From the NCBI GenBank assembly GCA_003518365.1, contig DOYU01000010.1:1938-65937 (forward strand): a stretch of DNA of 64,000 nucleotides. Direction: 5' to 3'. Of this stretch, positions 843 through 58,840 are shown piece after piece. The notes under the pieces are model-generated. The model had not been told where the DNA came from. It saw nothing but the letters and a program-made list of their open reading frames with translations, and ran no database searches. The position numbers were made by a program, and so were the translations under genes. The stretch is from Candidatus Magasanikiibacteriota bacterium. Its GTDB lineage: Bacteria; Patescibacteriota; Patescibacteriia; Magasanikbacterales; UBA922. Position 1 is the first letter of the stretch; each line of letters begins with the position of its first letter.

Positions 843-1052
843 GACTCGGGGGCGCTGCGGACGGGCTTTGAGCAGGTCTCGGGACCGGCTAAGTCTCCTT
901 GATTGGTTGGGGCATTCCTTTTTCCTCCGTGGGATCGAAATGTAGTGGCAGTTTACTTTATAAAACAGTTTTTAGTCAATACTAGGCATTTGACCCATAC
1001 ATCAAGTTGAAATGTGTCGCCTGGAGTGATAAGCTGTACACCATACGCATCT

Positions 1053-4016
1053 ATGAAAAAAACACTGCATACTGCACAGCAAGACGCGGTAGACTATATC
1101 GATGGTCCGCTTTTGATTGTGGCAGGAGCAGGGACTGGAAAGACCACGGTGGTGACAGAAAAGATTGCAAGGCTGATCGATGATGGGAAAGCGACTCCGG
1201 AAGAAATTCTCGCTCTTACGTTTACAGAAAAGGCAGCCGCAGAAATGCAAGATCGTGTTGATGATCTGGTGTCACTCGGCTACACAGAAATGCAGATCAG
1301 CACATTTCATAGTTTTTGTCAGAAAATTCTCGAACAATACGGACTTGAAATTGGACTCCCAGATCGGTTCAAACTTTTGACTGAAACAGATGCGTGGCTG
1401 CTCATGAAAAAACATTTGTACGATTTCAAGCTTGATTATTATAGACCACTTGGCAATCCTTCCCGCCATATCCATGCACTCCTCACACACTTCAGCAAAT
1501 GCAAAGATGAATTAATCGCACCAGAAGATTATTTAGCATATGCAGAGAATGTCACACTTGACGGCGATACTACAGAGCAAGATGAAAAATCTCGATTGAC
1601 CGAACTAGCAAACACATATCACGCCTACAATCAGCTTTTGCTCGACAATCAAGCTATGGATTTTGGGGATTTAATTTTTTATACAGTAACACTCTTACGA
1701 GAACGACCTCAGATAAAGAAAAAATTGCAGCAGCAATTCAAGTACGTCCTCATCGATGAATTTCAAGATGTGAATTATGCACAATATGAGCTTGTGCAGC
1801 TTTTGACAGATAGTCCGGATGTCCAACTCACTGTGGTGGGGGATGACGATCAGAGTATCTATGCATTTCGTGGTGCAAGTGTGAGCAATATCCTGCGTTT
1901 TAAAGATGATTATCATGATGCAAAAGAAGTCGTGCTCACAGAGAATTATCGTTCTGGTCAGGCAATTTTAGATAGCGCCTACACGCTTATTCAACACAAC
2001 AACCCGGATAGACTTGAAGAAAAACTTGGTATTGAAAAAAAATTGCACGCAGCAAATGAGATTGACGCTGCAGTGACACATCTTCATGCCGCAACGCTTG
2101 ATGACGAAGTTGCTTCTGTTGTTCAACAGATACAGCAAATACAACAAACAGATAAAGATGTCACCTGGGACGATATCGCTATTTTGGTACGTGCGAATAA
2201 CCACGCAACTGTATTTATGGAGGCGCTCACCCTGGCTGGAATTCCCTATGAATTTTTGAGTTCTAGTGGATTGTATCGACAGAATATTGTGATCGATGCG
2301 GTCAATGTGTTTAAAGTCATGGATTCGTATAAGGATTCTGCTGCCATCTATCGCGTGCTCCAGATGCCATGCTTTGCATTTTCAGAGCGAGATATGCATG
2401 AGTTTTTGAGCTTTGCGAAGAAAAATTCACTGCCATATTACGAAGCGCTAAAACGGACTGATGAAATTATTCTTTCAAAAGAAGCAAAAGATACATGTAA
2501 AAAGATTGTCAAATTAATGACGTCCAGCATAAAGAAAGCAAGATTTGAAAAACCGACAACAGTATTGCATCATTTTTTTGAAGAAAGTGGCTATTTTACG
2601 TATCTCACAAAGGAAGAAGAAAAAGGAAATAGAGATGTAATACGTTCTATCGCGCATCTCAAACAATTTTTTGATTATATTCACGCGTACGAACTGACGG
2701 GTGGACATATTGATGTGAGAAGTTTTTTGGAATATTTTAACGACGTGCTCGAGAGTGGTGACAATGGAAAAGTGTATCAACCCAGTGATACGCCAGACTC
2801 CGTCAATATCATGACCGTACACGCATCAAAAGGACTCGAATTCCAATACGTTTTTGTTGTAAACTGTGTCGAAGAGAGGTTTCCAACACGACGCAAGGGC
2901 GGTGATATAGAATTGCCAGATGAACTCGTAAAAGAAGTGTTGCCAGAAGGGGATTATCATTATCAGGAAGAACGCCGTCTTTTCTACGTTGCCATGACAC
3001 GCGCAAAGAAGCAGCTCTTTCTCACCAGTGCCGACGATTATGGCGGATCAAGAAAAAAGAAAGTATCAAGGTTTGTCGCAGAAACAGGTGACACACTCGC
3101 AGCAGGACAATTTCCAATTTCTCCGACCGAGGCTGATCCCGCTTTGCGGGACAATTTCCAATCATTCATGGCAGGAAAGGCAAACAAGAATGATGAACAA
3201 CCTATTTTTGAAGGTCTATACAAACTCCCCAAAACATTCTCCTTTTCCCAAATCCGCGCATTCCAAGTCTGCCCGTATCAATACAAAATTTCGTATATTC
3301 TTAAAATCCCAATGAAAGGGTCGCATTATTTTAGTTTTGGAAATTCCATCCATCTGACCATGCAACGATTCTACGAGCGTGTGCAACAGCTCAATAGTGT
3401 CACGCAAGGATCATTATTTGATCTTGCGCCAGTTCCTGAGAAAAAAGAGGAAGGCATTGTTGTTCCTGCGCTCGATGAATTACTTACCATCTACGAAGGC
3501 GCGTGGATAGGGGATTGGTATCAGGATGAACGCCAGCGAACATGCTATCATGAAAAAGGGAAAGAACTTTTGAAAACGTTTTACAAAAAAAATGAAAATA
3601 ATTGGACCATTCCCGTGGCGCTGGAAGGTGGGTTTCGAATCAAAGTTGGAAAGCATGTTATTACTGGAAAGATAGACCGTGTTGATCAGCTTCCTGACGG
3701 AACGCTTGCAATCATAGATTATAAAACAGGCGCACCAAAAGAAAAACTCGATACAGATGATAAACAACAACTCTTGCTCTACCAAAAAGCTGCAACAGAG
3801 CTGCCACAATATCGAAATATCGGTCCTACAAGTAATCTTGTCTATTACTATATTGCCGACGATATAGAGACATCGTTTCTGGGTACAGAAAAAGAACTTG
3901 CTTCATTTGAGGATAAGATCCTGAAAACGCTCGATGAAATGCATGACACTGATTTCCGAAAGATTTCACGAGAAGATGGATGTGGACGCTGTGATGTATG
4001 TACGTCACTTATATGA
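1053..4016 (+). CDS. UvrD/PcrA-like SF1 helicase fused to C-terminal RecB/AddB/Cas4-like PD-(D/E)XK nuclease with Cys cluster
   Basis: Walker A GAGTGKT near N-terminus; UvrD-like motifs (DEFQD, VGDDDQSIY, TVHASKGLEF); C-terminal IIDYKTG nuclease motif and terminal CGRCDVC cysteines. Start moved to ATG 1053 (MKKTLH). Confidence 0.85.
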   Translation: MKKTLHTAQQDAVDYIDGPLLIVAGAGTGKTTVVTEKIARLIDDGKATPEEILALTFTEKAAAEMQDRVDDLVSLGYTEMQISTFHSFCQKILEQYGLEIGLPDRFKLLTETDAWLLMKKHLYDFKLDYYRPLGNPSRHIHALLTHFSKCKDELIAPEDYLAYAENVTLDGDTTEQDEKSRLTELANTYHAYNQLLLDNQAMDFGDLIFYTVTLLRERPQIKKKLQQQFKYVLIDEFQDVNYAQYELVQLLTDSPDVQLTVVGDDDQSIYAFRGASVSNILRFKDDYHDAKEVVLTENYRSGQAILDSAYTLIQHNNPDRLEEKLGIEKKLHAANEIDAAVTHLHAATLDDEVASVVQQIQQIQQTDKDVTWDDIAILVRANNHATVFMEALTLAGIPYEFLSSSGLYRQNIVIDAVNVFKVMDSYKDSAAIYRVLQMPCFAFSERDMHEFLSFAKKNSLPYYEALKRTDEIILSKEAKDTCKKIVKLMTSSIKKARFEKPTTVLHHFFEESGYFTYLTKEEEKGNRDVIRSIAHLKQFFDYIHAYELTGGHIDVRSFLEYFNDVLESGDNGKVYQPSDTPDSVNIMTVHASKGLEFQYVFVVNCVEERFPTRRKGGDIELPDELVKEVLPEGDYHYQEERRLFYVAMTRAKKQLFLTSADDYGGSRKKKVSRFVAETGDTLAAGQFPISPTEADPALRDNFQSFMAGKANKNDEQPIFEGLYKLPKTFSFSQIRAFQVCPYQYKISYILKIPMKGSHYFSFGNSIHLTMQRFYERVQQLNSVTQGSLFDLAPVPEKKEEGIVVPALDELLTIYEGAWIGDWYQDERQRTCYHEKGKELLKTFYKKNENNWTIPVALEGGFRIKVGKHVITGKIDRVDQLPDGTLAIIDYKTGAPKEKLDTDDKQQLLLYQKAATELPQYRNIGPTSNLVYYYIADDIETSFLGTEKELASFEDKILKTLDEMHDTDFRKISREDGCGRCDVCTSLI

Positions 4017-6687: not shown

Positions 6688-7731
6688 ATGTTCAAAAATT
6701 TTACACAAAGATTTAGTCGCGATATTGGTATTGATCTTGGCACGGCCAACACCCTTGTCTACATCCCAGAGAAAGGTATTGTTGTTGATGAACCCTCGGT
6801 TGTCGCGATTCATAATAAAACAGGGCAGATTCTTGCGGTGGGGAATGAAGCAAAGTACATGATCGGAAAGACGCCACCCCATATTACGGTCACAAAACCG
6901 CTCAGTCATGGGGTCATCTCAGACTATGAAGTGACCGAAAAGATGTTGAAATATTTTATTGATAAAGTGCACGAAGACAGTCGTTCGTTTATGACACGCC
7001 CTAGGGTCGTCGTCTGTGTGCCCCTCGAAGTCACAGAGGTAGAGGTAAAAGCTGTAGAAGATGCAGCAGTGGCAGCAGGGGCAAAAGAAGTTCATGTGGT
7101 CCAAGAGCCAATGGCCGCGGCGATTGGTGTACGCATGCCCATTCAAGATCCTGTGGGGAATATGATTATTGATATTGGTGGGGGAAACACGGACGTTGCG
7201 GTGATTTCTTTGAGTGGCATTGTGACATGGAAATCCACAGAAATAGCAGGAGATGAAATGAATAAAAATATTGTTCAGTACGCACGAGAAGTATTCAATC
7301 TTCTGATTGGAGAGACCTATGCTGAGCAAATGAAGATAAAAATTGGATCAGCAATACTTTCTCCTGAACGTATGGAATTTCCTATGCGTGGTCGGGATGT
7401 TGTCAGTGGATTGCCAAGAGAGATCATGGTGACAAATGAACATATTCATGAGGCATTGGAACGTTCTGTAAATACCATTATTAGCCTTATAAAAACCACT
7501 TTGGAGCAAACACCGCCAGAATTGACGGCAGATATTCATGAGCGAGGCGTACTACTTACAGGTGGTGGGGCGATGCTTCGGGCGCTTGACACGATCATTG
7601 CTCGTGCTATCGAGATCCCTGTCCGAGTATCGAGTGATCCACTGACGGATGTAGTACGAGGTACCGGTATTCTTCTCGAAGATAGAGAGTTACTAAAGGA
7701 AATAGAATTGCCATCTGCTCGCGTGGCATAA
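6688..7731 (+). CDS. mreB: rod shape-determining protein MreB
   Basis: Actin-like ATPase motifs GIDLGTANTLVY, DIGGGNTDVAV. Confidence 0.9.
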   Translation: MFKNFTQRFSRDIGIDLGTANTLVYIPEKGIVVDEPSVVAIHNKTGQILAVGNEAKYMIGKTPPHITVTKPLSHGVISDYEVTEKMLKYFIDKVHEDSRSFMTRPRVVVCVPLEVTEVEVKAVEDAAVAAGAKEVHVVQEPMAAAIGVRMPIQDPVGNMIIDIGGGNTDVAVISLSGIVTWKSTEIAGDEMNKNIVQYAREVFNLLIGETYAEQMKIKIGSAILSPERMEFPMRGRDVVSGLPREIMVTNEHIHEALERSVNTIISLIKTTLEQTPPELTADIHERGVLLTGGGAMLRALDTIIARAIEIPVRVSSDPLTDVVRGTGILLEDRELLKEIELPSARVA

Positions 7732-46714: not shown

Positions 46715-48388
46715 TTAGGCTTTCCCTGATAATAATGTGATAAGTCTGCCTTTAATATTTTCATAAACCGATGTTAGCTTCTTTTTCGCCGCATCAGTTA
46801 AAAGTGCTGTGTGAGCAAGAGAGTCTCGAATTGGCTTATACTCGTTTGCGTCTCTCGCAAGACAAGCCTCCTTAGTTGGATCTTTTGCTTTATCTACGAG
46901 GTATGCGAGATCATTCATGGATAAATAACTCAAATCACTATTATTTTTACGAATACCAATACTAACGTTGCCTTTATTTTTAGACTCTGTTTCTACTTTT
47001 TTCCATTTCGCAATTTCTGTTTTTGCTTCCTTTGACAGGGTTATTTTCTTTTCACCAATATAATTTCTGATTAAATTTTCTGACACAAAACATTCCGCAT
47101 AAGAACCAAAATTATATTGGGCATCATCAGCAAGATCATTAACCCACGTGTCAATTTTCTTTTTATGTTTTGATTTTCCTGCAACTGTGTATTCTTTGGA
47201 AACAGTGTTAAATAACTCCATTGATTTCCTATCTCGAGGGGTCATTCTCTCGTTTTCTGAATCGCCATCCTTCCTGTGGGCTATTCTCCATTTGTCCCAA
47301 TCTTCAACGATTTTTAATATCACACTTTTTCGCAGAGTATCTAGAAACTTTTTATATTTTGGATCATCGGCAACCACACCCTCTCGACTACTAGTAAATA
47401 TATCATCACCACTATCAAGTTCATTGAAGTGAATCTGCCCATACAAATAATTCTCAGCTACTCGAGATGTCGGTATGTGTTTTAGGATATCTCTTTCTCG
47501 CAATCTTCCGTTTACAAAAAGGTCAATTCCGATTCTTTCCTCAGTCGTCATTATTTTAAGATCTCTTGGTCGTTCAACTGACGCAATAAATCCTTTCATT
47601 TTATTTCCTTTAAGAACGATGTCTCTTTGCTCGTTTTTTTCTGTAGTAAATCTCTTCTCAAGACTTTGAATGTAAGGATCTTTATGTTCATTTATTTTCC
47701 ATAAAAACTCTGTTTTTTCAGCAAGATCATTGAGAGATTCGTGTGTGACTTTGTCGCCATCAATAAAAATATTAAATGTTTTATCTAAAAGTGAAAAACG
47801 AAAATATAAAGCAACAATCTTTTTCAAAAATTCTAAGCTATTTTGTATGCCGTCCTTGATGCCCTCAAAATAAATTATTGTGCCGTGTTTGTGATCTTTT
47901 GTATGGGTAGCAAAAGTGCTTTCTGTCCACGATCCAAGAGAATACTCCTTGGGAGTAAGATCTTCTGTTATTGCCTTGTCCAAACCCGAGTTATCAATGA
48001 CACCACCAATATAATTGCTGGATTTAGTTTTTGAGATAACAGTTATTTTTTCCGCACAAGATAACAAGGCTAATTTACCAATACCTTTTCTGCCTATAAA
48101 AGGTCTGCCCTTAGGGGAGGCGGAACCGCCATTTTTTCTCTTTGAGTATCCAATTTTCAAAAACTTATTTTGAAAATCATCCTTTGTCATACCCAAACCA
48201 TCATCCTTAATAAAAAAGCTATTACCTTTTTTATTGATATAGATTGAGACATTTTTTGCGTCAGCATCCCATGCGTTAGAGATTGCTTCTCCGAGAACCG
48301 TTGCAAAACTTCTGTACAGATTTCTTCCTAAGTGATTTAAGACGCTCAGTGAAATCTCAAAAGAGAAATTATCATTATTGTTTTTCAT
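46715..48388 (-). CDS. GHKL-superfamily ATPase (HATPase_c_3; MORC/paraMORC-like) associated with R-M genes
   Basis: Bergerat-fold motifs: N box EAISNAWDADA, G1 IKDDGLGMT, G2 GRKGIGKLA; overlaps dcm by 14 nt. Confidence 0.7.
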   Translation of the reverse strand: MKNNNDNFSFEISLSVLNHLGRNLYRSFATVLGEAISNAWDADAKNVSIYINKKGNSFFIKDDGLGMTKDDFQNKFLKIGYSKRKNGGSASPKGRPFIGRKGIGKLALLSCAEKITVISKTKSSNYIGGVIDNSGLDKAITEDLTPKEYSLGSWTESTFATHTKDHKHGTIIYFEGIKDGIQNSLEFLKKIVALYFRFSLLDKTFNIFIDGDKVTHESLNDLAEKTEFLWKINEHKDPYIQSLEKRFTTEKNEQRDIVLKGNKMKGFIASVERPRDLKIMTTEERIGIDLFVNGRLRERDILKHIPTSRVAENYLYGQIHFNELDSGDDIFTSSREGVVADDPKYKKFLDTLRKSVILKIVEDWDKWRIAHRKDGDSENERMTPRDRKSMELFNTVSKEYTVAGKSKHKKKIDTWVNDLADDAQYNFGSYAECFVSENLIRNYIGEKKITLSKEAKTEIAKWKKVETESKNKGNVSIGIRKNNSDLSYLSMNDLAYLVDKAKDPTKEACLARDANEYKPIRDSLAHTALLTDAAKKKLTSVYENIKGRLITLLSGKA

Positions 48389-49445
48389 AATATTTTAGGT
48401 GGTTCTTGATACTCTTGCCAATGACTGATCCCAGCCTTACTGGTACTGCATTTCCAATAAACTTCGCTACTTTAGTAACTACCATAGCGTCTTCAGACTC
48501 GGTAAATTTATAATTTTCAGGGAATGTTTGAAATATTGCGGCCTCCCTTAAACTTATAGCACGATTTTGTGTTGGGTGACCAAAACGACCATTCCCTAGA
48601 CCTATACATTGTGTGGTCATAGTCGGTGCTGGTTCATCCCATCTCATCCGACCGTATACGGTGCTTCGATAGGTCTTTCCGGAAGCCTTTTTGTGACAAG
48701 TAAGCATTAGATCTTCACTCCAGCTTTCTGAATTTCCACCATTGTGGGGAGTTGCCTTGATTCTCTCAAGATTTATTGGATCAAGTTTTCTTGCCTTATG
48801 GAGAGGGTCTTTTTTGCTCGTTTGACCATCTTTGATTGGTTCAAGGTGCCTGATGACATCACGAACAGTAACTCTTTTATCCTTGTGAGTTCTTTTTATC
48901 AATTCAATTTCACCAAACCTTGAAGCCAACAAAACTAATCGTTTTCGTTTTTGCGGTACGCCAAATTCTGAAACATCTACTACTTCATATTTATATTTAT
49001 ATCCATTATCCACCAGCGTCTTAATAAACTTAGCAAAAACGGGATATTTATTTGTGTCAGCTAAACCACTAACATTTTCCATTGAGACAATGTCTGGCTG
49101 AATAGCCGCGATAAGTTGAGCAAATTTGCCCAATGGCTCAAGTTGCTTTTCAGTAACTTTTTTTAAGTTTAATCTTGAAAATGGCTGACAAGGTGCGCAA
49201 CCAGCAAGAACACGAATCGTACCCTTTTTTGTTCCAAATAATTTATTAATTTGATCAGGCGTTACCTTGAGAATATCACTATCAATAAATTGAGTTTTGT
49301 TGTTGTACTCATAACCAAATTTACAGCTTGAATCGTTATCAATTCCTGCTACCACATCTAAACCCTCCTTGATAAGACCATGTGTAAGTCCACCAATGCC
49401 ACAAAATAGATCAACGACTTTAATTTTTGAGGATTGTGATTTCAT
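48375..49445 (-). CDS. dcm: DNA (cytosine-5)-methyltransferase
   Basis: Motif I DLFCGIGG, motif IV GCAPCQPFS (PCQ), motif VI ENV (SMENVSG). Confidence 0.85.
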   Translation of the reverse strand: MKSQSSKIKVVDLFCGIGGLTHGLIKEGLDVVAGIDNDSSCKFGYEYNNKTQFIDSDILKVTPDQINKLFGTKKGTIRVLAGCAPCQPFSRLNLKKVTEKQLEPLGKFAQLIAAIQPDIVSMENVSGLADTNKYPVFAKFIKTLVDNGYKYKYEVVDVSEFGVPQKRKRLVLLASRFGEIELIKRTHKDKRVTVRDVIRHLEPIKDGQTSKKDPLHKARKLDPINLERIKATPHNGGNSESWSEDLMLTCHKKASGKTYRSTVYGRMRWDEPAPTMTTQCIGLGNGRFGHPTQNRAISLREAAIFQTFPENYKFTESEDAMVVTKVAKFIGNAVPVRLGSVIGKSIKNHLKYYEKQ

Positions 49446-49550: not shown

Positions 49551-51086
49551 TTATACCGTACTGTATAAAACGGAATTATTTTCAACGTGGGTTAAAAATT
49601 CCTCGATTGTTTTTGGCAAGATCGAAAGATTCTCTTTCTCCTTAACATAATTAATCTGCATTACAGAATCTTTGAATATGCTAGGGGCCACAAAGTAACA
49701 CATAGAATCCTTTGTACCTTTTTGGAATTGGCTCAAATGTCTTGAGATCGGCCACACTTCCATCATAGTTTGCATGCGTCCCTCCGACATTGTAACTTCG
49801 ACTAATATACCCTTAACATCCTCGAAACATTCAATGTCACCCTTATCTCCAACGCCTCCAGCTGTTGATGTTGGGAGACCTTCATCGTCGTAAGGATAGT
49901 TTGATACCACTCTAACATTTGGAAACTTGGATTTAATAGCCAAAGACACAAGAAACTCTAATCTGACAGGATTTGATAAGTATTTCAAAACATCATCTTT
50001 TGTTAATCTCTTCTTGGCCAAATTTAACATTTCATCTTTAATCCTGTTCCAAGGATAAATACCAACCCACTTAGCCAAAAAGGCGTCTCTCTCGCCGACA
50101 CTTACCGGCTTGGCAACAAACGAGATAAGATTTTCATCCACAGCCGACATATACTCAAAATATGATTCCTCTGTGGTGTATTTTTTATAATCAGAATAAG
50201 TTGCTAAAGCATAATCAACCTTAGTTTGTTCATTTCTGTTTATATCAATAAAACGACCAGCACCTCTTAATGAGATCAATCCTGTTAATCTCATTTTTCT
50301 AATAAACTCATCCGGATAGTCAACCATTATCGACTTCGGATTAAATTTCTTAAAATCACCGTCCATGATCTGGTTAACACAAATATCCACAATAACTTCC
50401 CAGCTCGGGGTATAGCCGTGTTCTTTTCTGATTTTCTTTATAAGTTTGTAAAGCTTCTCGGCGTCGTTATCTTTCCAGAAAATAACCAAGGGCAATTCTA
50501 ATTTTGAAATTCCGGTCCCGTTTAAATCCTTGTCAGCATTTATTTTATTAATCACACTCAGTAGTAAAATCAGCGGTGCATTTTCATTGAGTACTCGCCT
50601 GAATGGACTATTGCTTTGATATTTTACAAATGCATTCAGAAAAGCCTGTTGTTCAAATTCTGGGTGTTCGTTATCAACCAATTTTAATCCAATATCAGAA
50701 AATCTTATCTTTTCACCGTTTTTGTAATAAACAAAACCAAGCTCTTTGGCAATCTTAAACCAAGTATCAAACCGAGAAGCCCAGCCCTTACTAAAACCGG
50801 CTTCTTTATGATTTTGCGGATTATCCTCAAGAACCTTTTTCACTTCAGAATCAGACAACGGCTCTTTTGTTTCAATTTTATTCTTTACAACAGCACTTAT
50901 GTTAGTCGGCTTATATAGTCCGACCCGAATAACTTCACCGGAGATTTCTTCAGCCAACTGATCGTCAAGCACTTTTCCGTTGTAATCTTTAAGTACTCCC
51001 AAAAACCACTTAAGCCTTTCTGGGTTTCTAAGTGTAGTAGTAAATAATAATGGTTTATATTCTGATTCTCTTGTTTTTGTTTTCAT
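49551..51086 (-). CDS. hypothetical 511-aa protein; candidate restriction endonuclease partner of the two adjacent adenine methyltransferases
   Basis: No methyltransferase motifs; possible PD-(D/E)XK-like stretch GDKGDIECFEDVK near C-terminus; operon context with two alpha-class N6A methyltransferases. Confidence 0.4.
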   Translation of the reverse strand: MKTKTRESEYKPLLFTTTLRNPERLKWFLGVLKDYNGKVLDDQLAEEISGEVIRVGLYKPTNISAVVKNKIETKEPLSDSEVKKVLEDNPQNHKEAGFSKGWASRFDTWFKIAKELGFVYYKNGEKIRFSDIGLKLVDNEHPEFEQQAFLNAFVKYQSNSPFRRVLNENAPLILLLSVINKINADKDLNGTGISKLELPLVIFWKDNDAEKLYKLIKKIRKEHGYTPSWEVIVDICVNQIMDGDFKKFNPKSIMVDYPDEFIRKMRLTGLISLRGAGRFIDINRNEQTKVDYALATYSDYKKYTTEESYFEYMSAVDENLISFVAKPVSVGERDAFLAKWVGIYPWNRIKDEMLNLAKKRLTKDDVLKYLSNPVRLEFLVSLAIKSKFPNVRVVSNYPYDDEGLPTSTAGGVGDKGDIECFEDVKGILVEVTMSEGRMQTMMEVWPISRHLSQFQKGTKDSMCYFVAPSIFKDSVMQINYVKEKENLSILPKTIEEFLTHVENNSVLYSTV

Positions 51087-51090
51087 ATAT

Positions 51091-51996
51091 TTAATAATTG
51101 GTAATTAACACTTCCTTGATCTGTTTCTTACCGTTATTGTGATAGCTGATATAATTGCTTTCAATTTTGTGCGTCTTATATTTTTTCATCCAATCAATCA
51201 GTAAATCATTTTTACTTCCGTTATAATGGGTTACATTTGATAGGGCAAACTTTATACCCTTCTTATCCAAATCATCAATCATCCCCAGCAAGTCGGCTTC
51301 AGCTTTTTGATCCCACCGCTTGTTGTATTCGCTTGCTGTTATCAGATAGGGTGGATCTAAATAAACGAAATCATTCTTAGAATATTTCCGGTTTGCAAAA
51401 TAAGCTCTGAAGTCCTTTGAACTTAAAGTCATCTTCTTATCTTGCACAAAATCAAAATAACCATTCAGAGCGTTAACAACATTTTTATTAAAATCGACAT
51501 TGCCAACCGGTAAATTAAATTTACCACCACCATTAAACCTCAACATTCTATTAAAACCATAGATAAGTAGAATATACAGAATTAAAGGATCATTCTTTAT
51601 GTGTTTATTTACGCAAACTCTTAATTTTTCGTAGCCCTCTTTATTAAATTTGGCAAAATAGGTCTTTTTCCATTCTTTTTTTAACGAGACCGGAATTATA
51701 TCTTCTTTATAAGATCGTGATAGGTGATATTTCTTGATTATCTTTTCTACATTCTTAAAAAATAAAGTTGGGTTATTTGCACTATTAATTAAGAAACGAT
51801 GTATGTTGATTAAATTTTTATCGTTATCATTTAAGTAGTATTTATTTGCGTTAATATTTAAAAAGACAGTACCACCGCCGACAAATGGTTCGTAAAAATT
51901 GTCTACTTCCTGTGGAAATAAACCAGCCAGTTGCTTCATTAATTTGTATTTATCCCCGACATAAAATAGCGGGGATCTCTTAATTTTATTTTGCAT
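51091..51996 (-). CDS. Dam-family (D12-class, alpha) N6-adenine DNA methyltransferase
   Basis: Motif X YVGDKYKL, motif I EPFVGGGTVFLN, motif IV DPPY (VYLDPPYLIT). Confidence 0.8.
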   Translation of the reverse strand: MQNKIKRSPLFYVGDKYKLMKQLAGLFPQEVDNFYEPFVGGGTVFLNINANKYYLNDNDKNLINIHRFLINSANNPTLFFKNVEKIIKKYHLSRSYKEDIIPVSLKKEWKKTYFAKFNKEGYEKLRVCVNKHIKNDPLILYILLIYGFNRMLRFNGGGKFNLPVGNVDFNKNVVNALNGYFDFVQDKKMTLSSKDFRAYFANRKYSKNDFVYLDPPYLITASEYNKRWDQKAEADLLGMIDDLDKKGIKFALSNVTHYNGSKNDLLIDWMKKYKTHKIESNYISYHNNGKKQIKEVLITNY

Positions 51997-53803
51997 GGTT
52001 TACGGTGGTTACAAATAAATACTCTTTATGGTTTTTGAAATCGGTATTGCCAGCGTTGAAATGCCTGTAGTCTTTTTCAAAGACTTTAGTTTTTCCCTTT
52101 GCCGATAAAATATCCTTGATCTCTTGTAGAGTAATTTTATTTTTTGATGAATTGCTTTTTGAATCGTAAGTATTATTGTAAGACACGACTAAATACTTGG
52201 CATTCAAATCTTTTACTAATTCGGCAAGCCTGTCTTTTGCTTGAACACGGCAATAATCGCTCATATTTTCCTCCTGAGGCTTCAGGGCGGTCCCAAACAA
52301 CTCTGGCTTATCCCATTTCGTTAAAGTTTCTAGGACATGGTAGAAACGACTATACTGCCTCGAGTTATAGGGTGGATCAATATAAACAATGTCAGCTTTA
52401 ATTTTTTTAGCTAAGAGGTTCGTATCTTCTTTATAAATTGTGACATTTTTTACTTCAATCGGATCAATAGGTCTCATAAAAAATCCGTCTTCGACATGTT
52501 CTTTTTTGAAATATGCATCATAGTGACCAACTGTATTGGCAACCTTATCGATTGAATACAATAACGAAGCAATAAGAATATAATATTCTTTATCCGACAG
52601 GTTCTTTCTGTTTTCCTCTATAGTTTCTCTAATGAACCCTATTATTTTGGCTGAGTTGTGGCTAAAATACTTACCGCCAAAATTAGTAGAAAAATAATTA
52701 TTCTCTAAATCACCACCGTCAATGTTGTTGTAGTCTTTGATAATATTTTCAATCTTGTTTTTATCCCATTCTCCATTGCCAAAAAAGGCTTGATAAATTG
52801 CATAGTTAGAATGTAAAAAATCGTTAAGAATGATTTCATCATAGTGTCTGGCCGCAACAGCCGAAACCACTCCGGTCCCAGCAAAAATATCAGCGAAAGA
52901 GTTGCCTTTTTCGCACTCCTTATTAATTACGGAAAATATCCATTCAATAAGTTTGTGCTTACTGCCAATATATCGGCGGTTTTGTAATTGTAAATAATTC
53001 TTTTTTACCTGTGGAATATAAAAATAATTCTCCTGTACTTTTTCGGCACTTATTTCGTAAGCTGGTTTTTCAAGCTCTAAAAGAGCAAACAAAGTTCCTT
53101 GTACACCGTCAGCTACATAGTCATAACTCTTTTTATCTTTGCTTAATTTTTCAAAAAAGCTACAGCTTCCGTTCTCCGCTGTGATAATAAAATCAATAAC
53201 AGCAATGCCCATTATCTCTCCAGCTTGGGATATTTTTTGTACCACCTCAATATCTCTTGTACTGGGAGATGAATCTCCGGAGGGGTGATTATGAACTAAT
53301 ATGATACTAGCGGAGTTAAGTTCTACTGCTGGATGAAAAATTTCTCTGGGATGTATTAAGCTTTTATCTAGCAAACCTACACTAATAATTTCTTTCTTTA
53401 TCAAAACATTTCTGGCGTTAAGATAAAGACACACTAAATATTCCTTTTTCTTGTCTCGTAGATCGTATGTTAAAGATAAAACATCCTGTTGGTTTTTTAT
53501 GATAGTGTCGCCACCTTTTTCTTCATCATAAAATCTTTTTACTAATGAAATGGCAGAAATAATTTGTAAGGCCTTGGCTTGCCCAATACCAGAAACCTCT
53601 AATAGGTCTTCAACTTTAATATTTAAAAAATTCTTGCCAAATTTCTTAATAATCTGTTCTGATAGCTGTTTAACATTTTTGCCTTTAATCCCACTACCCA
53701 GAAGAATCGCCAAAAGATCACTCTTTGAAAGTGCTTCTGATCCTTTTTTAAGGAACCTCTCTCGAGGACGATCTATTTTGGGGATGTCTTTTATTTTTGG
53801 CAT
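51986..53803 (-). CDS. fusion: RadC-like JAB/MPN domain (N) + alpha-class N6-adenine DNA methyltransferase (C)
   Basis: RadC signature HNHPSGDSSPSTRD preceded by an HhH-like region; then YIGSKHKL (motif X), DIFAGTGVVS (motif I), VYIDPPYNS (motif IV). Confidence 0.75.
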   Translation of the reverse strand: MPKIKDIPKIDRPRERFLKKGSEALSKSDLLAILLGSGIKGKNVKQLSEQIIKKFGKNFLNIKVEDLLEVSGIGQAKALQIISAISLVKRFYDEEKGGDTIIKNQQDVLSLTYDLRDKKKEYLVCLYLNARNVLIKKEIISVGLLDKSLIHPREIFHPAVELNSASIILVHNHPSGDSSPSTRDIEVVQKISQAGEIMGIAVIDFIITAENGSCSFFEKLSKDKKSYDYVADGVQGTLFALLELEKPAYEISAEKVQENYFYIPQVKKNYLQLQNRRYIGSKHKLIEWIFSVINKECEKGNSFADIFAGTGVVSAVAARHYDEIILNDFLHSNYAIYQAFFGNGEWDKNKIENIIKDYNNIDGGDLENNYFSTNFGGKYFSHNSAKIIGFIRETIEENRKNLSDKEYYILIASLLYSIDKVANTVGHYDAYFKKEHVEDGFFMRPIDPIEVKNVTIYKEDTNLLAKKIKADIVYIDPPYNSRQYSRFYHVLETLTKWDKPELFGTALKPQEENMSDYCRVQAKDRLAELVKDLNAKYLVVSYNNTYDSKSNSSKNKITLQEIKDILSAKGKTKVFEKDYRHFNAGNTDFKNHKEYLFVTTVNHAK

Positions 53804-53806
53804 ATT

Positions 53807-54055
53807 TTAATTCTTCTTTTTGGTTTTAATATTACTTGTCTCATCCAAAAAAGCATTGAGATCAGATTGCTTGATACGCCAAACACCAAGCTTGGATGCC
53901 TTTAACCTGCCCGACTCGATATATCGGGTGACAGTGCGTGTATGAACTCTTAAAATTTTGGCGATTTCTTCTATTGTGAAAAGTTTTTCAATTTCGTTCA
54001 TAAGAATTATATTAGTCGTTGATATCATTTTACCTCTTCTGCTTTTCATTGTCAA
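53807..54055 (-). CDS. excisionase-family HTH DNA-binding protein (Xis/AlpA/MerR-like)
   Basis: LFTIEEIAKILRVHTRTVTRYIESGRLKASKLGVWRIKQSDLNAFL matches the excisionase-family HTH pattern. Confidence 0.6.
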   Translation of the reverse strand: MTMKSRRGKMISTTNIILMNEIEKLFTIEEIAKILRVHTRTVTRYIESGRLKASKLGVWRIKQSDLNAFLDETSNIKTKKKN

Positions 54056-54174: not shown

Positions 54175-54909
54175 ATGAACTGGGAAGTAAGGATTAGGCT
54201 TGCATCCAGTAAAAACATGACTATGAAAATGAAAAAGGCCTCAAAGACCACAAAATACAAATTCAACATAAAGAAAATTGTCTCTAAGTCAATGACTTAC
54301 CGTTTTTCTCTCGGAATAGTTAAAGATGTTGTAAAAAATGCTCTGGAAAATTCCGGTATCAAAAATTCGGATGATATTATAAAGAGGCACGAGGACGAGA
54401 TCGTAGAGCTAAAAGATAGGCTAAACAAAACAGACACTAAATTTGAAAGCTATAAAAAAGAGACTAACAAAACAATTGCCGAATTAAAAGATGAACTGGG
54501 AAAAGTTAGTAAACAGAACCTGACTCAGATCGGCCGAGAAATGGCTATCGGTTTTTATGAACAGAGCCAAAAGATACGGTCCAAACAGAAAGAAAAGAAA
54601 ACTAAAGAAACTTTGCTCTGCCTCTCCTCAGACGGCGATCTATACCTAGCGTCCAATCAACAAAAATGTTATCCGATGAGTAAAGAGAAAATGCGTGAGA
54701 AATTGATAAAAGTTTTATGCTCGGCCAAAGGTTATATCAAGACGGCCGAGTTGGCTGAAATGGTCGGCACGACCAATCAAGCGATTAGAAATTCCAAGCT
54801 GGAGATAAATAATAAATCTAAAAATCGGATTGGCATTGATAAACTGATTATCGGCCGTGACGGCAATGGCTATCGCTTAAATCCAGAATATAAAATCAAA
54901 ATACTATAG
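54175..54909 (+). CDS. hypothetical coiled-coil protein with possible C-terminal winged-helix
   Basis: 244-aa ORF divergent from the Xis-like gene; followed by terminator. Confidence 0.4.
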   Translation: MNWEVRIRLASSKNMTMKMKKASKTTKYKFNIKKIVSKSMTYRFSLGIVKDVVKNALENSGIKNSDDIIKRHEDEIVELKDRLNKTDTKFESYKKETNKTIAELKDELGKVSKQNLTQIGREMAIGFYEQSQKIRSKQKEKKTKETLLCLSSDGDLYLASNQQKCYPMSKEKMREKLIKVLCSAKGYIKTAELAEMVGTTNQAIRNSKLEINNKSKNRIGIDKLIIGRDGNGYRLNPEYKIKIL

Positions 54910-54942
54910 CGTAATAGTCGGTGTAGTTAATAACTTCAATGA

Positions 54943-54970
54943 GAGAGCCTGAAATAGGGCTCTTTTTTGT
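54943..54970 (+). terminator. rho-independent terminator (agagcc-tgaaata-gggctct + T-run)
   Basis: Hairpin followed by tttttt. Confidence 0.55.
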
Positions 54971-55055
54971 TGCCCAACTACACCTGGGCATTATTCCAAG
55001 AGATGGGCAACGATTGGCAAACTATAAATGTGTGAGAGTAAAAAAATGAAATGAT

Positions 55056-55307
55056 ATGCCAATCAAACAAAGTGAGAGTTTCAAGACCGCCGATCTGGCA
55101 TTGATCGCGGTGCTTTTATTATTAATGCCCGAATCTCTTGAGGTCGTGGATCGGACAAATCCGCATAAGGTCCTCTTTGGATTTAAAACTGACCGCAAGC
55201 TCGAAAAGCTTATGGACAGTTTTTGGAAACGAGAGCTTGTGGTCGAACCTCAAGCGTTCTTTAACCAAATCAAAATCGCCAAAGCCAGGATCTATGTCCA
55301 CGAATAA
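55056..55307 (+). CDS. hypothetical protein (island cargo)
   Basis: 83-aa ORF in GC-richer segment. Confidence 0.35.
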   Translation: MPIKQSESFKTADLALIAVLLLLMPESLEVVDRTNPHKVLFGFKTDRKLEKLMDSFWKRELVVEPQAFFNQIKIAKARIYVHE

Positions 55308-55309
55308 AT

Positions 55310-55519
55310 ATGAAGTTAAAACCGGAAACGCTGGAAAAACTCCGAGCGATTCTCAAAAAAGACTTTGGCCAAGAAGTGAATGATCAAGACCTCCACGATA
55401 TCGCATTCAATCTCGTGAGTTATTACGACGCTCTGTCGCGATTCTACTGGGAGGATATCACGAGCGGTCGAAAGCTTATAGAACCATATGACACAGTACC
55501 CGAGCGACAAACCACATAA
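55310..55519 (+). CDS. hypothetical protein (island cargo)
   Basis: 69-aa ORF directly following the previous one. Confidence 0.3.
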   Translation: MKLKPETLEKLRAILKKDFGQEVNDQDLHDIAFNLVSYYDALSRFYWEDITSGRKLIEPYDTVPERQTT

Positions 55520-56060
55520 GATCAGAGATTATCGCGAATTGCCGTTTGCTTACCAAGATAAGCCAGCTTTGCGGTACATGCGACAACAATGGCTCGATAA
55601 GCACATTAGCATTGATGCCTACCGGAATCTCCGGAACATGTATCTGGCTTTGACTGAGATTGCCTCCAACAAAGCCAGTCAAACCATAGAGGCGTCCAAC
55701 AAAACGCTTTTGATTTATTCCGGACTCAAAGACTGGCGAACGATTAAGAATTGTTTGTCCAAGCTCGAGGAGTGGGCTTTTATCGCGATCACAAAAACTC
55801 GGGGCGAGGATGCAAAGTTCAAGCCCCGAGGTATCACTTTGCTGTCCGTCCTACATCTGACGCAGGGTGGAAACCAATCAGCATCAAAAGCCGGACGGCA
55901 TAGCACGCAGACTGCCTCCGGTGCAGAAGATATAGAAGGTAATGGATTAAAAGAAATTAAAGAAAATAATAAAGAAATTAACGGCCGGTCCAAGAATTTA
56001 AAACTCTTGGCCGAGGCGAGAGCCAAACTCGTAGCTAAGATGACCCTACAAAACAAATGA
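55488..56060 (+). CDS. hypothetical protein, possible DNA-binding/replication-related (island cargo)
   Basis: 190-aa ORF; basic N-terminal half; no firm motif. Confidence 0.35.
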   Translation: MTQYPSDKPHKIRDYRELPFAYQDKPALRYMRQQWLDKHISIDAYRNLRNMYLALTEIASNKASQTIEASNKTLLIYSGLKDWRTIKNCLSKLEEWAFIAITKTRGEDAKFKPRGITLLSVLHLTQGGNQSASKAGRHSTQTASGAEDIEGNGLKEIKENNKEINGRSKNLKLLAEARAKLVAKMTLQNK

Positions 56061-56148
56061 TTTTCGGTTATAAACGGCAACATTTGGCAACGAAATGAGC
56101 AAAAAACCGATAATAAATAATCATTAAACGATACTAAATGATACCTAA

Positions 56149-56622
56149 ATGGCTAAATCTGTAGACATAAAAAATGAAAAATATCAGAATGCGATCCGCT
56201 TAAAATATGGCGATTTTACTTATTTAGAGATTGCCCGGATGCTTAAAGTTTCTCATGTCAGTGTAAAGAGATGGTTTCGGTCAGACGGCTTACTGAAAGA
56301 CGAATACGACCGATATGAAAAAGAAAGAAACCGTGTACGCGACAAAGAGACTGATACTGTGCTGGCGAGACATTCTGTAATTGCGGCCAATATTCTGGTC
56401 TCGCTTATGGGTGCCAAAAGCGATGTCATGAAATTCAGAGCTGTTAAAGCCATTTTGGATTATGTACTGGGTCCAGTAAGAACCATGGGCAGTGACGATC
56501 CTTACGATAACGCCGATTATCGGCGAGATAGCGACAGTATTGCGAGAATACTGGAAAGTGCTAGGAAAAGACAACAAAAATCCACTGTGGGCAACTCGAG
56601 CTTAGCTTGTCCGAAAAAATAG
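56149..56622 (+). CDS. HTH-domain protein (possible phage terminase small subunit-like or regulator)
   Basis: N-terminal HTH-like YLEIARMLKVSHVSVKRW. Confidence 0.35.
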   Translation: MAKSVDIKNEKYQNAIRLKYGDFTYLEIARMLKVSHVSVKRWFRSDGLLKDEYDRYEKERNRVRDKETDTVLARHSVIAANILVSLMGAKSDVMKFRAVKAILDYVLGPVRTMGSDDPYDNADYRRDSDSIARILESARKRQQKSTVGNSSLACPKK

Positions 56623-56681: not shown

Positions 56682-58469
56682 ATGACTATGACAATGCAAA
56701 ACGAAAATGAATCGATGCGAGCCGTAGGATATGCCCGTGTCTCCTCCAAGGATCAAGAGGACACTGGATACTCACTACCGGCTCAAGAAAAACTTCTACA
56801 CGATTATGCCGACAGAAACGGTTTTGATCTGGTAAAAGTTTTTGCTATTCAAGAATCGGCGGCCGGAAAAATCCAACGAAAGATATTCCACGAGATGTTG
56901 GACTATGTGACCAAAGCCAAGATCAATACGATCTTCGTGGAAACCACCGACCGTTTAACCCGTAACTTCGCTGATGTGCCGATAATTGACGAATGGATAC
57001 TGGCGGATGAAAAGCACACCATTCATCTGGTAAAAGAAGGCTGTACCTTACACAAAGACTCCAAGTCCCACGAATGGTTTATGTGGCGAGTCAAAGTGGC
57101 TACGGCCGAATATTATATCCGACTCCTTTCCGAGAATGTGAAAAAGGGGCAGAAAGAAAAATTGGCTCAAGGCTGGCTACCAAGCAAACCGCCACTGGGA
57201 TACCAGACCACTGGCGAGAAAGGACACAAAATCCATATCATTGATCCGGACAAATCGCCACTGGTCAAAAAGATGTTTGACCTTTACGCCTCCAATCGCT
57301 ACTCAACCAAAAAGCTGGCCGATGAAATGCATAAGCTTGGCATGCGGTCTCGAGGAGGAAATAAAGTCAGTCATTCAAGAGTCCACCAACTACTGGGCGA
57401 TCCGTTTTATTATGGAATGAATCGCTGGAACGGCAAAGTCGCTCAAGGCGGACACGAACCGCTGATAACCAAAGAATTATTCATGCGATGCCAAGACATA
57501 ATGCATAGCAACGGTACGCCGAAATACAACAAGCACAATCCGTTATTTAAAAATGTCTTCCACTGTGAGGAATGCAAAGGCCGGATAACTTGGGAGATAC
57601 AAAAAGGCCACTGGTATGGCCACTGCAACCATTATAAAAACTGCCAGCAAAAGGAATGGGTCAAACAAGAGAACATTGACCTGCAAGTAATGGAAAATAT
57701 CGAGCATTTAAGCTCAAAGCACAACGAGGCCATAGAGAATATGCTCACTTGGGTCCAAGAGGCACTCAAAGAAAGCCACGGCGAGGAGATAGAATTCCGA
57801 CAAAAGGCCACTGGCGAACTTGAGCGACGCTACCAAGTCGCCACGCAAAGACTGGATAAGATATACGATGACAAGATAGACGGCAAGATCAGCGAGGACT
57901 TCTACCAGAAAAAGTACCAGCAGTACAAAATTGAACAAGAGGAAGTGTTGGACGGACTGAATAAGCACAAAAATGCCAACCTCAAGTATTACGATATGGG
58001 GTCAACCTTTTTACAAATGGCCAAAGAGGCAAGGAGAATTTATTTGAACCGAAGCACGATTGAAATGGTCGACGACAAGAAACAACTTTTGTCCCTTTTA
58101 TTTTCGAACCCTATAATAAATGGCAAGAAAGTTGAGATTTCATACCAGAAAGCCTTCAAAATGGTATTTGAACGAGTATCACAGATGTTGGGAGAAAATA
58201 CAGACGAAAATACAACATTCGAACCGCTGAAAAAGCCCGTAGATAAAGAGAAAAGCAGAGCTTTTGGCTCTGCTCATCCCATATGGCTCGACGGGTGGGA
58301 CTCGAACCCACGACCAATTGGTTACACGTCATCCACAATTTTCATTGCGGCGTGGACTATATCATCACCCTCGCCTATTTCCGATCATGTCGGAATCGTT
58401 AGGGTGCGAAGCGCTTCCCCTGCATCAAATATGTTCGAACAAGGTACTCCCCGAAGGGATAGTCTCTGA
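56682..58469 (+). CDS. large serine recombinase (resolvase/invertase N-domain + recombinase domain + zinc ribbon)
   Basis: Catalytic Ser region GYARVSSKDQ; zinc ribbon CEECKGR...HCNHYKNC; the last ~60 codons are antisense to the tRNA-Asn 3' exon and intron. Confidence 0.8.
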   Translation: MTMTMQNENESMRAVGYARVSSKDQEDTGYSLPAQEKLLHDYADRNGFDLVKVFAIQESAAGKIQRKIFHEMLDYVTKAKINTIFVETTDRLTRNFADVPIIDEWILADEKHTIHLVKEGCTLHKDSKSHEWFMWRVKVATAEYYIRLLSENVKKGQKEKLAQGWLPSKPPLGYQTTGEKGHKIHIIDPDKSPLVKKMFDLYASNRYSTKKLADEMHKLGMRSRGGNKVSHSRVHQLLGDPFYYGMNRWNGKVAQGGHEPLITKELFMRCQDIMHSNGTPKYNKHNPLFKNVFHCEECKGRITWEIQKGHWYGHCNHYKNCQQKEWVKQENIDLQVMENIEHLSSKHNEAIENMLTWVQEALKESHGEEIEFRQKATGELERRYQVATQRLDKIYDDKIDGKISEDFYQKKYQQYKIEQEEVLDGLNKHKNANLKYYDMGSTFLQMAKEARRIYLNRSTIEMVDDKKQLLSLLFSNPIINGKKVEISYQKAFKMVFERVSQMLGENTDENTTFEPLKKPVDKEKSRAFGSAHPIWLDGWDSNPRPIGYTSSTIFIAAWTISSPSPISDHVGIVRVRSASPASNMFEQGTPRRDSL

Positions 58470-58713: not shown

Positions 58714-58769
58714 ATATGTTGTAATCGAGCATAGTGTACTCGACTTGTGTGAGCCTGTAAAGACTCTTG

Positions 58770-58840
58770 TTCGGGGACAGGGATTCGAACCCCGATAGTC
58801 AGGATCAAAACCTGAAGTCCTACCTTTAGACGATCCCCGA
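58770..58840 (-). tRNA. tRNA-Gln(TTG)
   Basis: Cloverleaf: acceptor TCGGGGA/TCCCCGA, anticodon loop TTTTGAT, T-loop TTCGAAT; 71 nt, no encoded CCA. Confidence 0.75.

Follow-up and report, generated by a model that had tools for sequence, protein, structure and literature searches.

A RadC module joined to the putative first methylase of an AlwI-family restriction-modification cassette

The fusion gene and its cassette

A single uninterrupted open reading frame (ORF) at positions 51986..53803 (minus strand) of a 64,000-nucleotide stretch of a Candidatus Magasanikiibacteriota genome (assembly GCA_003518365.1, contig DOYU01000010.1, positions 1,938 to 65,937; the whole stretch is called the window below) encodes, from an ATG start, a 605 amino acid protein in which RadC is joined to a DNA methyltransferase. 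The two parts had been recognized in a sequence-only reading of the window, and both were confirmed by Pfam and NCBIfam searches. The protein begins with the UPF0758_N/helix-hairpin-helix (HhH) domain of RadC (residues 4-78, 53570..53794, minus strand; PF20582, E 2e-22), which is followed by the RadC JAB/MPN+ domain (residues 103-218, 53150..53497, minus strand; PF04002, E 1.7e-35). Inside the latter lie the metal-site motif HNHPSGDSSPSTRD (residues 171-184, 53252-53293, minus strand) and, upstream of it, the metal-site residue Glu154 (53342-53344, minus strand). A linker (residues 221-277, 52973..53143, minus strand) leads to a D12-class (alpha-type) N6-methyladenine methyltransferase domain (residues 278-605, 51989..52972, minus strand), whose residues 278-522 match PF02086 (MethyltransfD12) with an E value of 5e-36. 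The motifs named in the sequence-only reading were all found: besides the JAB motif these are, in the same minus-strand gene, YIGSKHKL (residues 278-285), motif I FAGTG (residues 307-311, 52871-52885) and, past an intervening variable region, DPPY (residues 476-479, 52367-52378). The PF02086 match, with an FxGxG-type motif, a variable region and then DPPY, is the signature of the D12 class, and the methylase half is predicted to be a D12-class N6-adenine DNA methyltransferase.

The N-terminal 220 residues scored 211 bits with the RadC equivalog model PRK00024 (NCBIfam NF000642; cut-off 180) and 200 bits with TIGR00608 (cut-off 134). With both HhH and JAB domains present and the score above the equivalog cut-off, this part is a complete RadC and more than a JAB fragment. 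It departs from the stand-alone form of about 220 residues in that RadC makes up residues 1-220 of a 605 amino acid protein. The earlier assignment to RadC therefore stands, but not the comparison drawn with the short RadC-like JAB proteins of conjugative elements, since this is the full-length, housekeeping type with HhH. No helix-turn-helix (HTH) domain was detected in the fusion protein by Pfam scan. When solved structures were searched by sequence, the sole match was the RadC JAB domain 2QLC (E 2e-23), and the methylase part had no match at E<0.01. The linker segment was also found by tblastn, at 55-64% identity, in the unfused methylases of three related cassettes (L074, L075 and L078); because these homologs keep it, the linker is really the N-terminal extension of the methylase.

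The fusion gene is followed on the minus strand by two further genes. The first (51091..51996), whose first 11 nt overlap the 3' end of the fusion gene, encodes a Dam-family N6-adenine methyltransferase (PF02086; TIGR00571, 140 bits, cut-off 115). The second (49551..51086) encodes a 511 amino acid AlwI-family Type IIS restriction endonuclease (RE_AlwI, PF09491, E 2e-42), whose C-terminal domain weakly matches N.BspD6I and R.BspD6I (E 2e-8). The gene order is thus RadC-methylase (RadC-M1), Dam-like methylase (M2), endonuclease. A species-level scan with one genome per species detected 118 stretches encoding a relative; 80 of these loci were fetched and compared with the window proteins by tblastn. 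All 43 loci of the same kind as the window (family A) that had enough downstream sequence carry RadC-M1, M2 and an AlwI-type endonuclease in this order. In family B (13 loci) the same RadC, about 80% identical, is attached to a different D12 methylase, about 44% identical, and an AlwI-like endonuclease directly follows the fusion in 12 of the 13.

Cassettes with the same layout were found among annotated plasmids. An AlwI-type cassette on the Lactococcus lactis plasmid NZ_CP065734.1 has the same M1-M2-R order, a Dam-family M2 and an RE_AlwI endonuclease; its M1, annotated as 'DNA adenine methylase', is 55% identical to the M1 domain of the window. It differs in having no RadC, just an N-terminal extension of about 80 amino acids with no Pfam domain. 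Helicobacter suis plasmids are annotated with the M1-M2-R layout as well, likewise without RadC. A 2026 survey associates AlwI-family endonucleases with a pair consisting of a 'DNA adenine methylase' and Dam (PMC12898733). Taking into account the neighbouring M2 and AlwI-family endonuclease genes, the conservation of the trio and the annotated plasmid counterparts, the base system is an ordinary Type IIS restriction-modification (R-M) cassette of which the fusion is M1, and as far as sequence can tell this cassette is very probably a complete AlwI-family system. The sequence-only reading had, as one idea, a Type IIS-like system whose second methyltransferase had gained RadC; the Dam-family and AlwI-family neighbours bear out the Type IIS-like methylase with an acquired RadC, but it is the first methylase gene, not the second.

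Across most family-A loci M1 and M2 are about 72-91% identical, with M2 at 55-56% in a few. The AlwI-family endonucleases of L007-L086 fall into classes of about 26%, 50%, 57-65%, 72-81% and 94% identity to the window enzyme. This pattern suggests that the endonuclease may have been swapped, or may evolve much faster, within an otherwise conserved cassette.

Distribution, conservation and partners of the RadC module

Full-length fusions were present in 62 of the 80 fetched loci. The 605 amino acid sequence itself occurs unchanged on at least 24 contigs, which stem from different samples and were built with different assemblers; NCBI assembly GCA_000998635.1 and several groundwater metagenomes are among the sources, and more than 120 clusters (90% identity) share the same four-domain Pfam architecture at lengths of 600-611 amino acids. 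A frameshift or assembly error joining two genes, which had been named as what would undo the sequence-only reading, was rejected on the ground of the identical ORF on at least 24 independent contigs and the 62 full-length copies in other genomes; the fusion is conserved. In public databases these proteins carry the automatic labels 'DNA repair protein RadC' or 'adenine-specific DNA-methyltransferase'.

The hosts of the 80 loci are mostly Patescibacteria. They also include Omnitrophota, Gammaproteobacteria, Atribacterota, Desulfobacteraceae, Planctomycetia, Nitrospirae, Campylobacterota, Arcobacter, Nautiliales and Spirochaetaceae, with a few DPANN-type archaeal metagenome-assembled genomes (MAGs). 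The cassette is spread over many phyla at 55-96% identity. Three full-length fusions of 73-78% identity (L028, L043 and L050) come from MAGs labelled Nanoarchaeota, Woesearchaeota and Altiarchaeales, on short contigs of 2-9 kb; either the fusion has passed between bacteria and archaea, or these contigs were mis-binned. The sequence-only reading had linked RadC-like JAB proteins with conjugative and integrative elements; no fused copy, just unfused M1 homologs, was found in 72,556 plasmids, 50,697 phage records or the IMG/VR viral contigs.

Residue conservation was determined in a non-redundant set of 63 fusions. In the JAB metal site E154, H171, H173 and D184 are invariant (63/63), S181 is retained in at least 90%, and 21 of the 80 positions in the HhH part (residues 1-80) are invariant, as are the methylase motifs FAGTG and DPPY. 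Pairwise ratios of nonsynonymous to synonymous substitution (dN/dS) were 0.05-0.09 for RadC and 0.06-0.07 for the methylase, at saturated synonymous sites. Between families A and B, dN of RadC was 0.15, the same as within family A, and that of the methylase was 0.54. Recent recombination as the source of the high RadC identity between the families was not supported, dS being saturated at about 2. Because the dN between families equals that within family A while dS is saturated, RadC conservation reflects constraint and not recent exchange. Strong purifying selection acts on the RadC half, which is functional and keeps an intact metal site.

Other fusion partners were sought among 1.84 billion representatives, followed by Pfam scans. 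RadC was found joined to C5 cytosine methylases in P0140, which adjoins an MTaX1 gene, in P0222, which adjoins an NgoFVII-type endonuclease gene, and in P0138 and P0132. It was joined to a beta-class N4/N6 methylase in P0204, next to an EcoRII-C endonuclease gene, and to a second family of D12 methylases in P0122, on a short contig. No RadC-endonuclease fusion was present among the 150 best representatives. The RadC modules of P0138, P0140, P0132 and of truncated D12 forms are 58-81% identical to the window RadC, compared with 38-51% for the stand-alone RadCs of the same list; two short proteins, exceptional at 65% and 70%, may be fragments of fusions. The modules of P0122, P0222 and P0204 (42-46% identity) form a second cluster that includes one stand-alone RadC. 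In a rough neighbour-joining tree the fused modules fell into two groups, each found on more than one methylase class. An R-M-associated RadC clade is thus found at the N-terminus of predicted methylases of three classes, D12, C5 and beta, which belong to at least four Type II R-M families that are unrelated to one another. At one locus with a RadC-C5 methylase and an NgoFVII-type endonuclease (L093), a ThiF (E1-like) gene (902-1579, plus strand) stops 1 nt short of the fusion gene. In ubiquitin-like systems JAB proteins are paired with E1-like ones; the adjacency may be a coincidence, as the neighbouring genes look like housekeeping genes.

The N-terminus of M1 is occupied in several ways. 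In three derivatives (L080, L086 and P0208) JAB was lost and the HhH (UPF0758_N) part is still fused to M1; in L074 a JAB remnant alone was retained. At one locus (L077) a gene for a 160 amino acid RadC JAB protein without HhH (7152-7634, minus strand; PF04002, E 2e-44) lies, divergently oriented, 285 nt upstream of an unfused M1-M2-AlwI cassette, the single case in which the link to RadC survives without fusion. At the position of RadC, M1 homologs carry HTH_3 (Xre-type) domains (P0123, P0131, P0190 and P0167), an AAA_21 ATPase (P0158), an S24 peptidase (P0128) or a LexA DNA-binding domain with S24, that is, a complete LexA-like repressor (P0149). The LexA/S24 modules would be self-cleaving and possibly damage-responsive. 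This variety suggests that the occupant of the site may have a regulatory role. RadC is an accessory module: close cassettes exist that lack it.

The island and its neighbouring genes

Immediately upstream of the fusion gene lies a small HTH_17 (MerR/excisionase-type) gene (53807..54055, minus strand; PF12728, E 1e-15), which ends 3 nt before the fusion start and may control the operon. A promoter scan of the region gave its best match (11/12) at 54055-54027, at the 5' end of this gene; the region overall was not above chance. By Pfam, a small HTH gene directly precedes the RadC cassette in the window and in L012 (HTH_17) and in L016, L035, L066 and L071 (HTH_3); with L022, L049 and L051 added, where an ORF comparable in size and position was counted without a Pfam scan, such genes accompany at least nine cassettes. 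The gene that stops 3 nt short of the fusion start is a different one in nine other loci (L014, L017, L021, L023, L031, L034, L039, L041 and L046): it is conserved, encodes 282 amino acids and combines a GIY-YIG-like motif at the N-terminus with DUF4357, weakly matching RAMA, at the C-terminus. In L036 a T5orf172/MUG113 GIY-YIG gene stands upstream instead. At the level of genes, which is what was compared, no upstream gene is common to the loci, though RadC is about 80% identical.

Five small genes (54175-56622, plus strand), encoding a 244 amino acid protein, DUF5659, 69 and 190 amino acid proteins and a 157 amino acid HTH-like protein, separate the R-M operon from a gene for a large serine recombinase (56682..58469, plus strand; Pfam Resolvase and Recombinase). 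Pfam assigned nothing in this block beyond DUF5659 and a weak match to sigma-70 r4/HTH. The block recurs with the island in L007, and L012 has part of it. Beyond the recombinase, a tRNA scan placed tRNA-Gln at 58769-58840. On the other side, directly downstream of the AlwI cassette, lies a second, defence-type cassette (46715-49445): a C5 cytosine methylase gene (48375-49445, minus strand) and, overlapping it, the gene of a 557 amino acid GHKL/HATPase_c_3 protein (46715-48388, minus strand), both identified by Pfam. The GHKL protein presumably resembles the MORC-like ATPases described with R-M systems. The pair is outside the RadC system. In the related island L007, which has the same backbone as the island of the window, the segment of about 46.7-49.6 kb with this pair is replaced by a different insert of about 3.7 kb between conserved flanks. 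Because of the recombinase and tRNA-Gln setting and the L007 backbone with its exchanged segment, the cassette is best regarded as cargo of a modular integrative island. Its host is a groundwater genome of the Parcubacteria/candidate phyla radiation (CPR) type.

No conjugation or phage genes were seen among the Pfam-annotated genes of L001-L006 or the translated ORFs at about 45-58.5 kb of the window, the remainder of which was available as ORF coordinates, and the window contains no second RadC gene.

Possible role of the RadC module

The RadC part resembles stand-alone RadC (UPF0758; PRK00024; 2QLC) in its HhH and JAB domains, in the E...HxH...S..D metal-site residues and in scoring above the equivalog cut-off; it differs in forming the N-terminal half of a methylase in an R-M operon and in belonging to a separate clade. 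With the autoregulatory HTH-methylases of the SsoII/EcoRII type, and with the HTH_3 and LexA/S24 forms of M1, the fusion shares an extra DNA-binding module on the methylase N-terminus. However, the window RadC has HhH instead of HTH, a conserved metal-hydrolase site and often a separate HTH gene upstream; with no HTH in the fusion and no conserved upstream gene, RadC-M1 belongs neither with these autoregulators nor with the C-proteins. RadC-containing polyvalent proteins and the RadC-ArdC, RadC-DinG and RadC-primase fusions likewise combine RadC JAB with DNA-acting domains in contexts of genetic conflict, as described in passages of PMC5512222, PMC3239186 and PMC11981726. Polyvalent proteins are large, multi-domain and encoded by conjugative elements or phages, whereas RadC-M1 consists of two modules and belongs to a resident R-M cassette with its cognate endonuclease, with no conjugation or phage context seen. 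The passages of PMC5512222 and PMC3239186 name HhH, ArdC, primase and DinG as partners of RadC, and in the passages of all three papers no methylase is named as a partner. Literature searches turned up no account of RadC fused to a methylase within an R-M system, in agreement with the sequence-only reading, in which the fusion was not known to be characterized. The Type II R-M cassette, with its AlwI-family layout, is of a known kind; the RadC-bearing methylase is the new part.

The best explanation of the locus as a whole, and on balance a probable one, is that the fusion is M1 of an AlwI-family cassette with RadC as an accessory of the modification arm. As to what RadC does there, we tentatively propose from its context that it could be a DNA-bound accessory which favours timely protection. 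Judging from their families, M1 and M2 would each methylate adenine at N6 on one of the two strands of an asymmetric site, and this methylation would shield host DNA from the endonuclease. RadC would join the modification arm in acting on DNA. HhH motifs contact the DNA backbone irrespective of sequence, and the HhH domain might keep the methylase on DNA of any sequence, plausibly DNA that has just been synthesized or has just arrived; the JAB site would perform a hydrolytic step. Together the two domains could help DNA that needs protection to be methylated before the endonuclease cuts.

Several observations weigh against this proposal. Four cassettes (L074, L075, L078 and L085) have no RadC, with M1 71-76% identical to that of the window and an endonuclease of the same type; because such close RadC-less cassettes work, RadC is not required for methylation as such. 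Pure tethering would not need an invariant JAB metal site. No contact between the domains could be discerned in a structure predicted by AlphaFold2, whose quality was too poor to show any: on a 65-sequence alignment with all rows at least 77% identical, the mean pLDDT was 58 and the pTM 0.47, and the JAB core alone was reasonably confident. Recognition-site avoidance was not apparent either, as no 4- or 5-mer stands out in the 64-kb window (GGATC, 125 observed and 122 expected; GAGTC, 59 and 66) and k-mer counts inside and outside the island do not differ; probably the island is too recent and the window too short. RadC was dispensable for transformation where tested, and radC is competence-induced in several bacteria (PMC6237807). 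No biochemical activity reported for any RadC was found in the literature, where the protein was still termed elusive in 2026, and for this reason the role given to RadC here is drawn from context. For the RadC-clade JAB, PMC3239186 and PMC3482391 predict a nuclease on the ground that it and exonucleases displace one another as domains, and its fold is closest to metalloproteases in a passage of PMC11981726.

Four other explanations were considered. RadC could be a regulatory module of the R-M operon, which by DNA binding and peptidase activity switches the expression or stability of the methylase or the endonuclease. It would then correspond to the HTH that autoregulating methylases carry N-terminally, or to a LexA-like repressor; close M1 homologs do carry HTH_3, or LexA with S24, at the same position, and RadC shares their logic of a DNA-binding domain combined with, in its case, a metallopeptidase fold. 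Yet a small HTH-type gene of its own already precedes at least nine of the RadC cassettes (three of these being the unscanned ORFs), the upstream gene varies between HTH, DUF4357, GIY-YIG and others when genes are compared, and it is established that HhH binds the DNA backbone without sequence specificity, so that a regulatory role appears unlikely. An ArdC-like establishment or anti-restriction factor of a mobile cassette, acting on host defences or on incoming DNA, would fit the fusion of RadC-type JAB to ArdC and its location next to ArdB/KlcA genes in mobile elements, reported in the parts consulted of PMC3239186, PMC5512222 and PMC12458937, and it would fit the recombinase island and the spread of the fusion over many phyla. 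It is difficult to reconcile with the absence of fused copies from the plasmid, phage and IMG/VR collections, with a RadC of the full-length, HhH-bearing type above the equivalog threshold, with a RadC fusion that always travels with its own endonuclease and with flanks whose annotated or translated genes showed none for conjugation, and we regard it as quite unlikely.

That RadC is a second nuclease assisting the restriction arm, and might for instance cleave the other strand beside the nick of an AlwI-family enzyme, is suggested by the nuclease prediction for RadC-clade JAB domains in the passages cited above and by the nickases and heterodimeric enzymes of the AlwI family (N.BspD6I, and R.BspD6I with its large and small subunits). 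But the same RadC clade occurs on methylases accompanied by unrelated endonucleases (NgoFVII-type, EcoRII-C and MTaX1), it was found on no endonuclease among the 150 best representatives, and the RadC-less cassettes retain the same type of endonuclease; such a role is very unlikely. The existence of derivatives without RadC or with JAB deleted (L074, L075, L078, L080, L085, L086 and P0208) would be expected if the fusion were a neutral, stable accident with RadC hitch-hiking. Against neutrality stand the low dN/dS, even with dS saturated, the invariant catalytic residues and the presence of the same RadC clade on three methylase classes, and against an artefact the independent identical contigs and the full-length copies elsewhere, which leave little room indeed for either.

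The accessory of the modification arm proposed above may have a wider counterpart. RadC in general might be a catalytic partner of DNA methylation and R-M, a DNA-bound JAB hydrolase which would make sure that modification of nascent or incoming DNA precedes restriction, or would relieve self-restriction; the incoming DNA could include single-stranded DNA from competence uptake. We consider this generalization speculative and unlikely, but were it true, the induction of radC in competence without a transformation phenotype in restriction-free assays would be accounted for, and the fused methylases would be a 'Rosetta stone' for a protein unexplained for about 40 years.

RadC is present in most bacterial lineages without an established activity, as a predicted nuclease with a metalloprotease-like fold. 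A dedicated RadC clade on methylases, never seen on an endonuclease in the set examined, offers a tractable context for finding its substrate. The RadC-methylase adds a new accessory layer to R-M, which CPR and other ultra-small uncultured bacteria have especially often, and the annotation 'DNA repair protein RadC' on many proteins of about 600 amino acids probably hides an R-M methylase. As a restriction system the cassette is ordinary; what is unexpected is that R-M methylases are linked to RadC recurrently and under selection, and this makes an old question testable.

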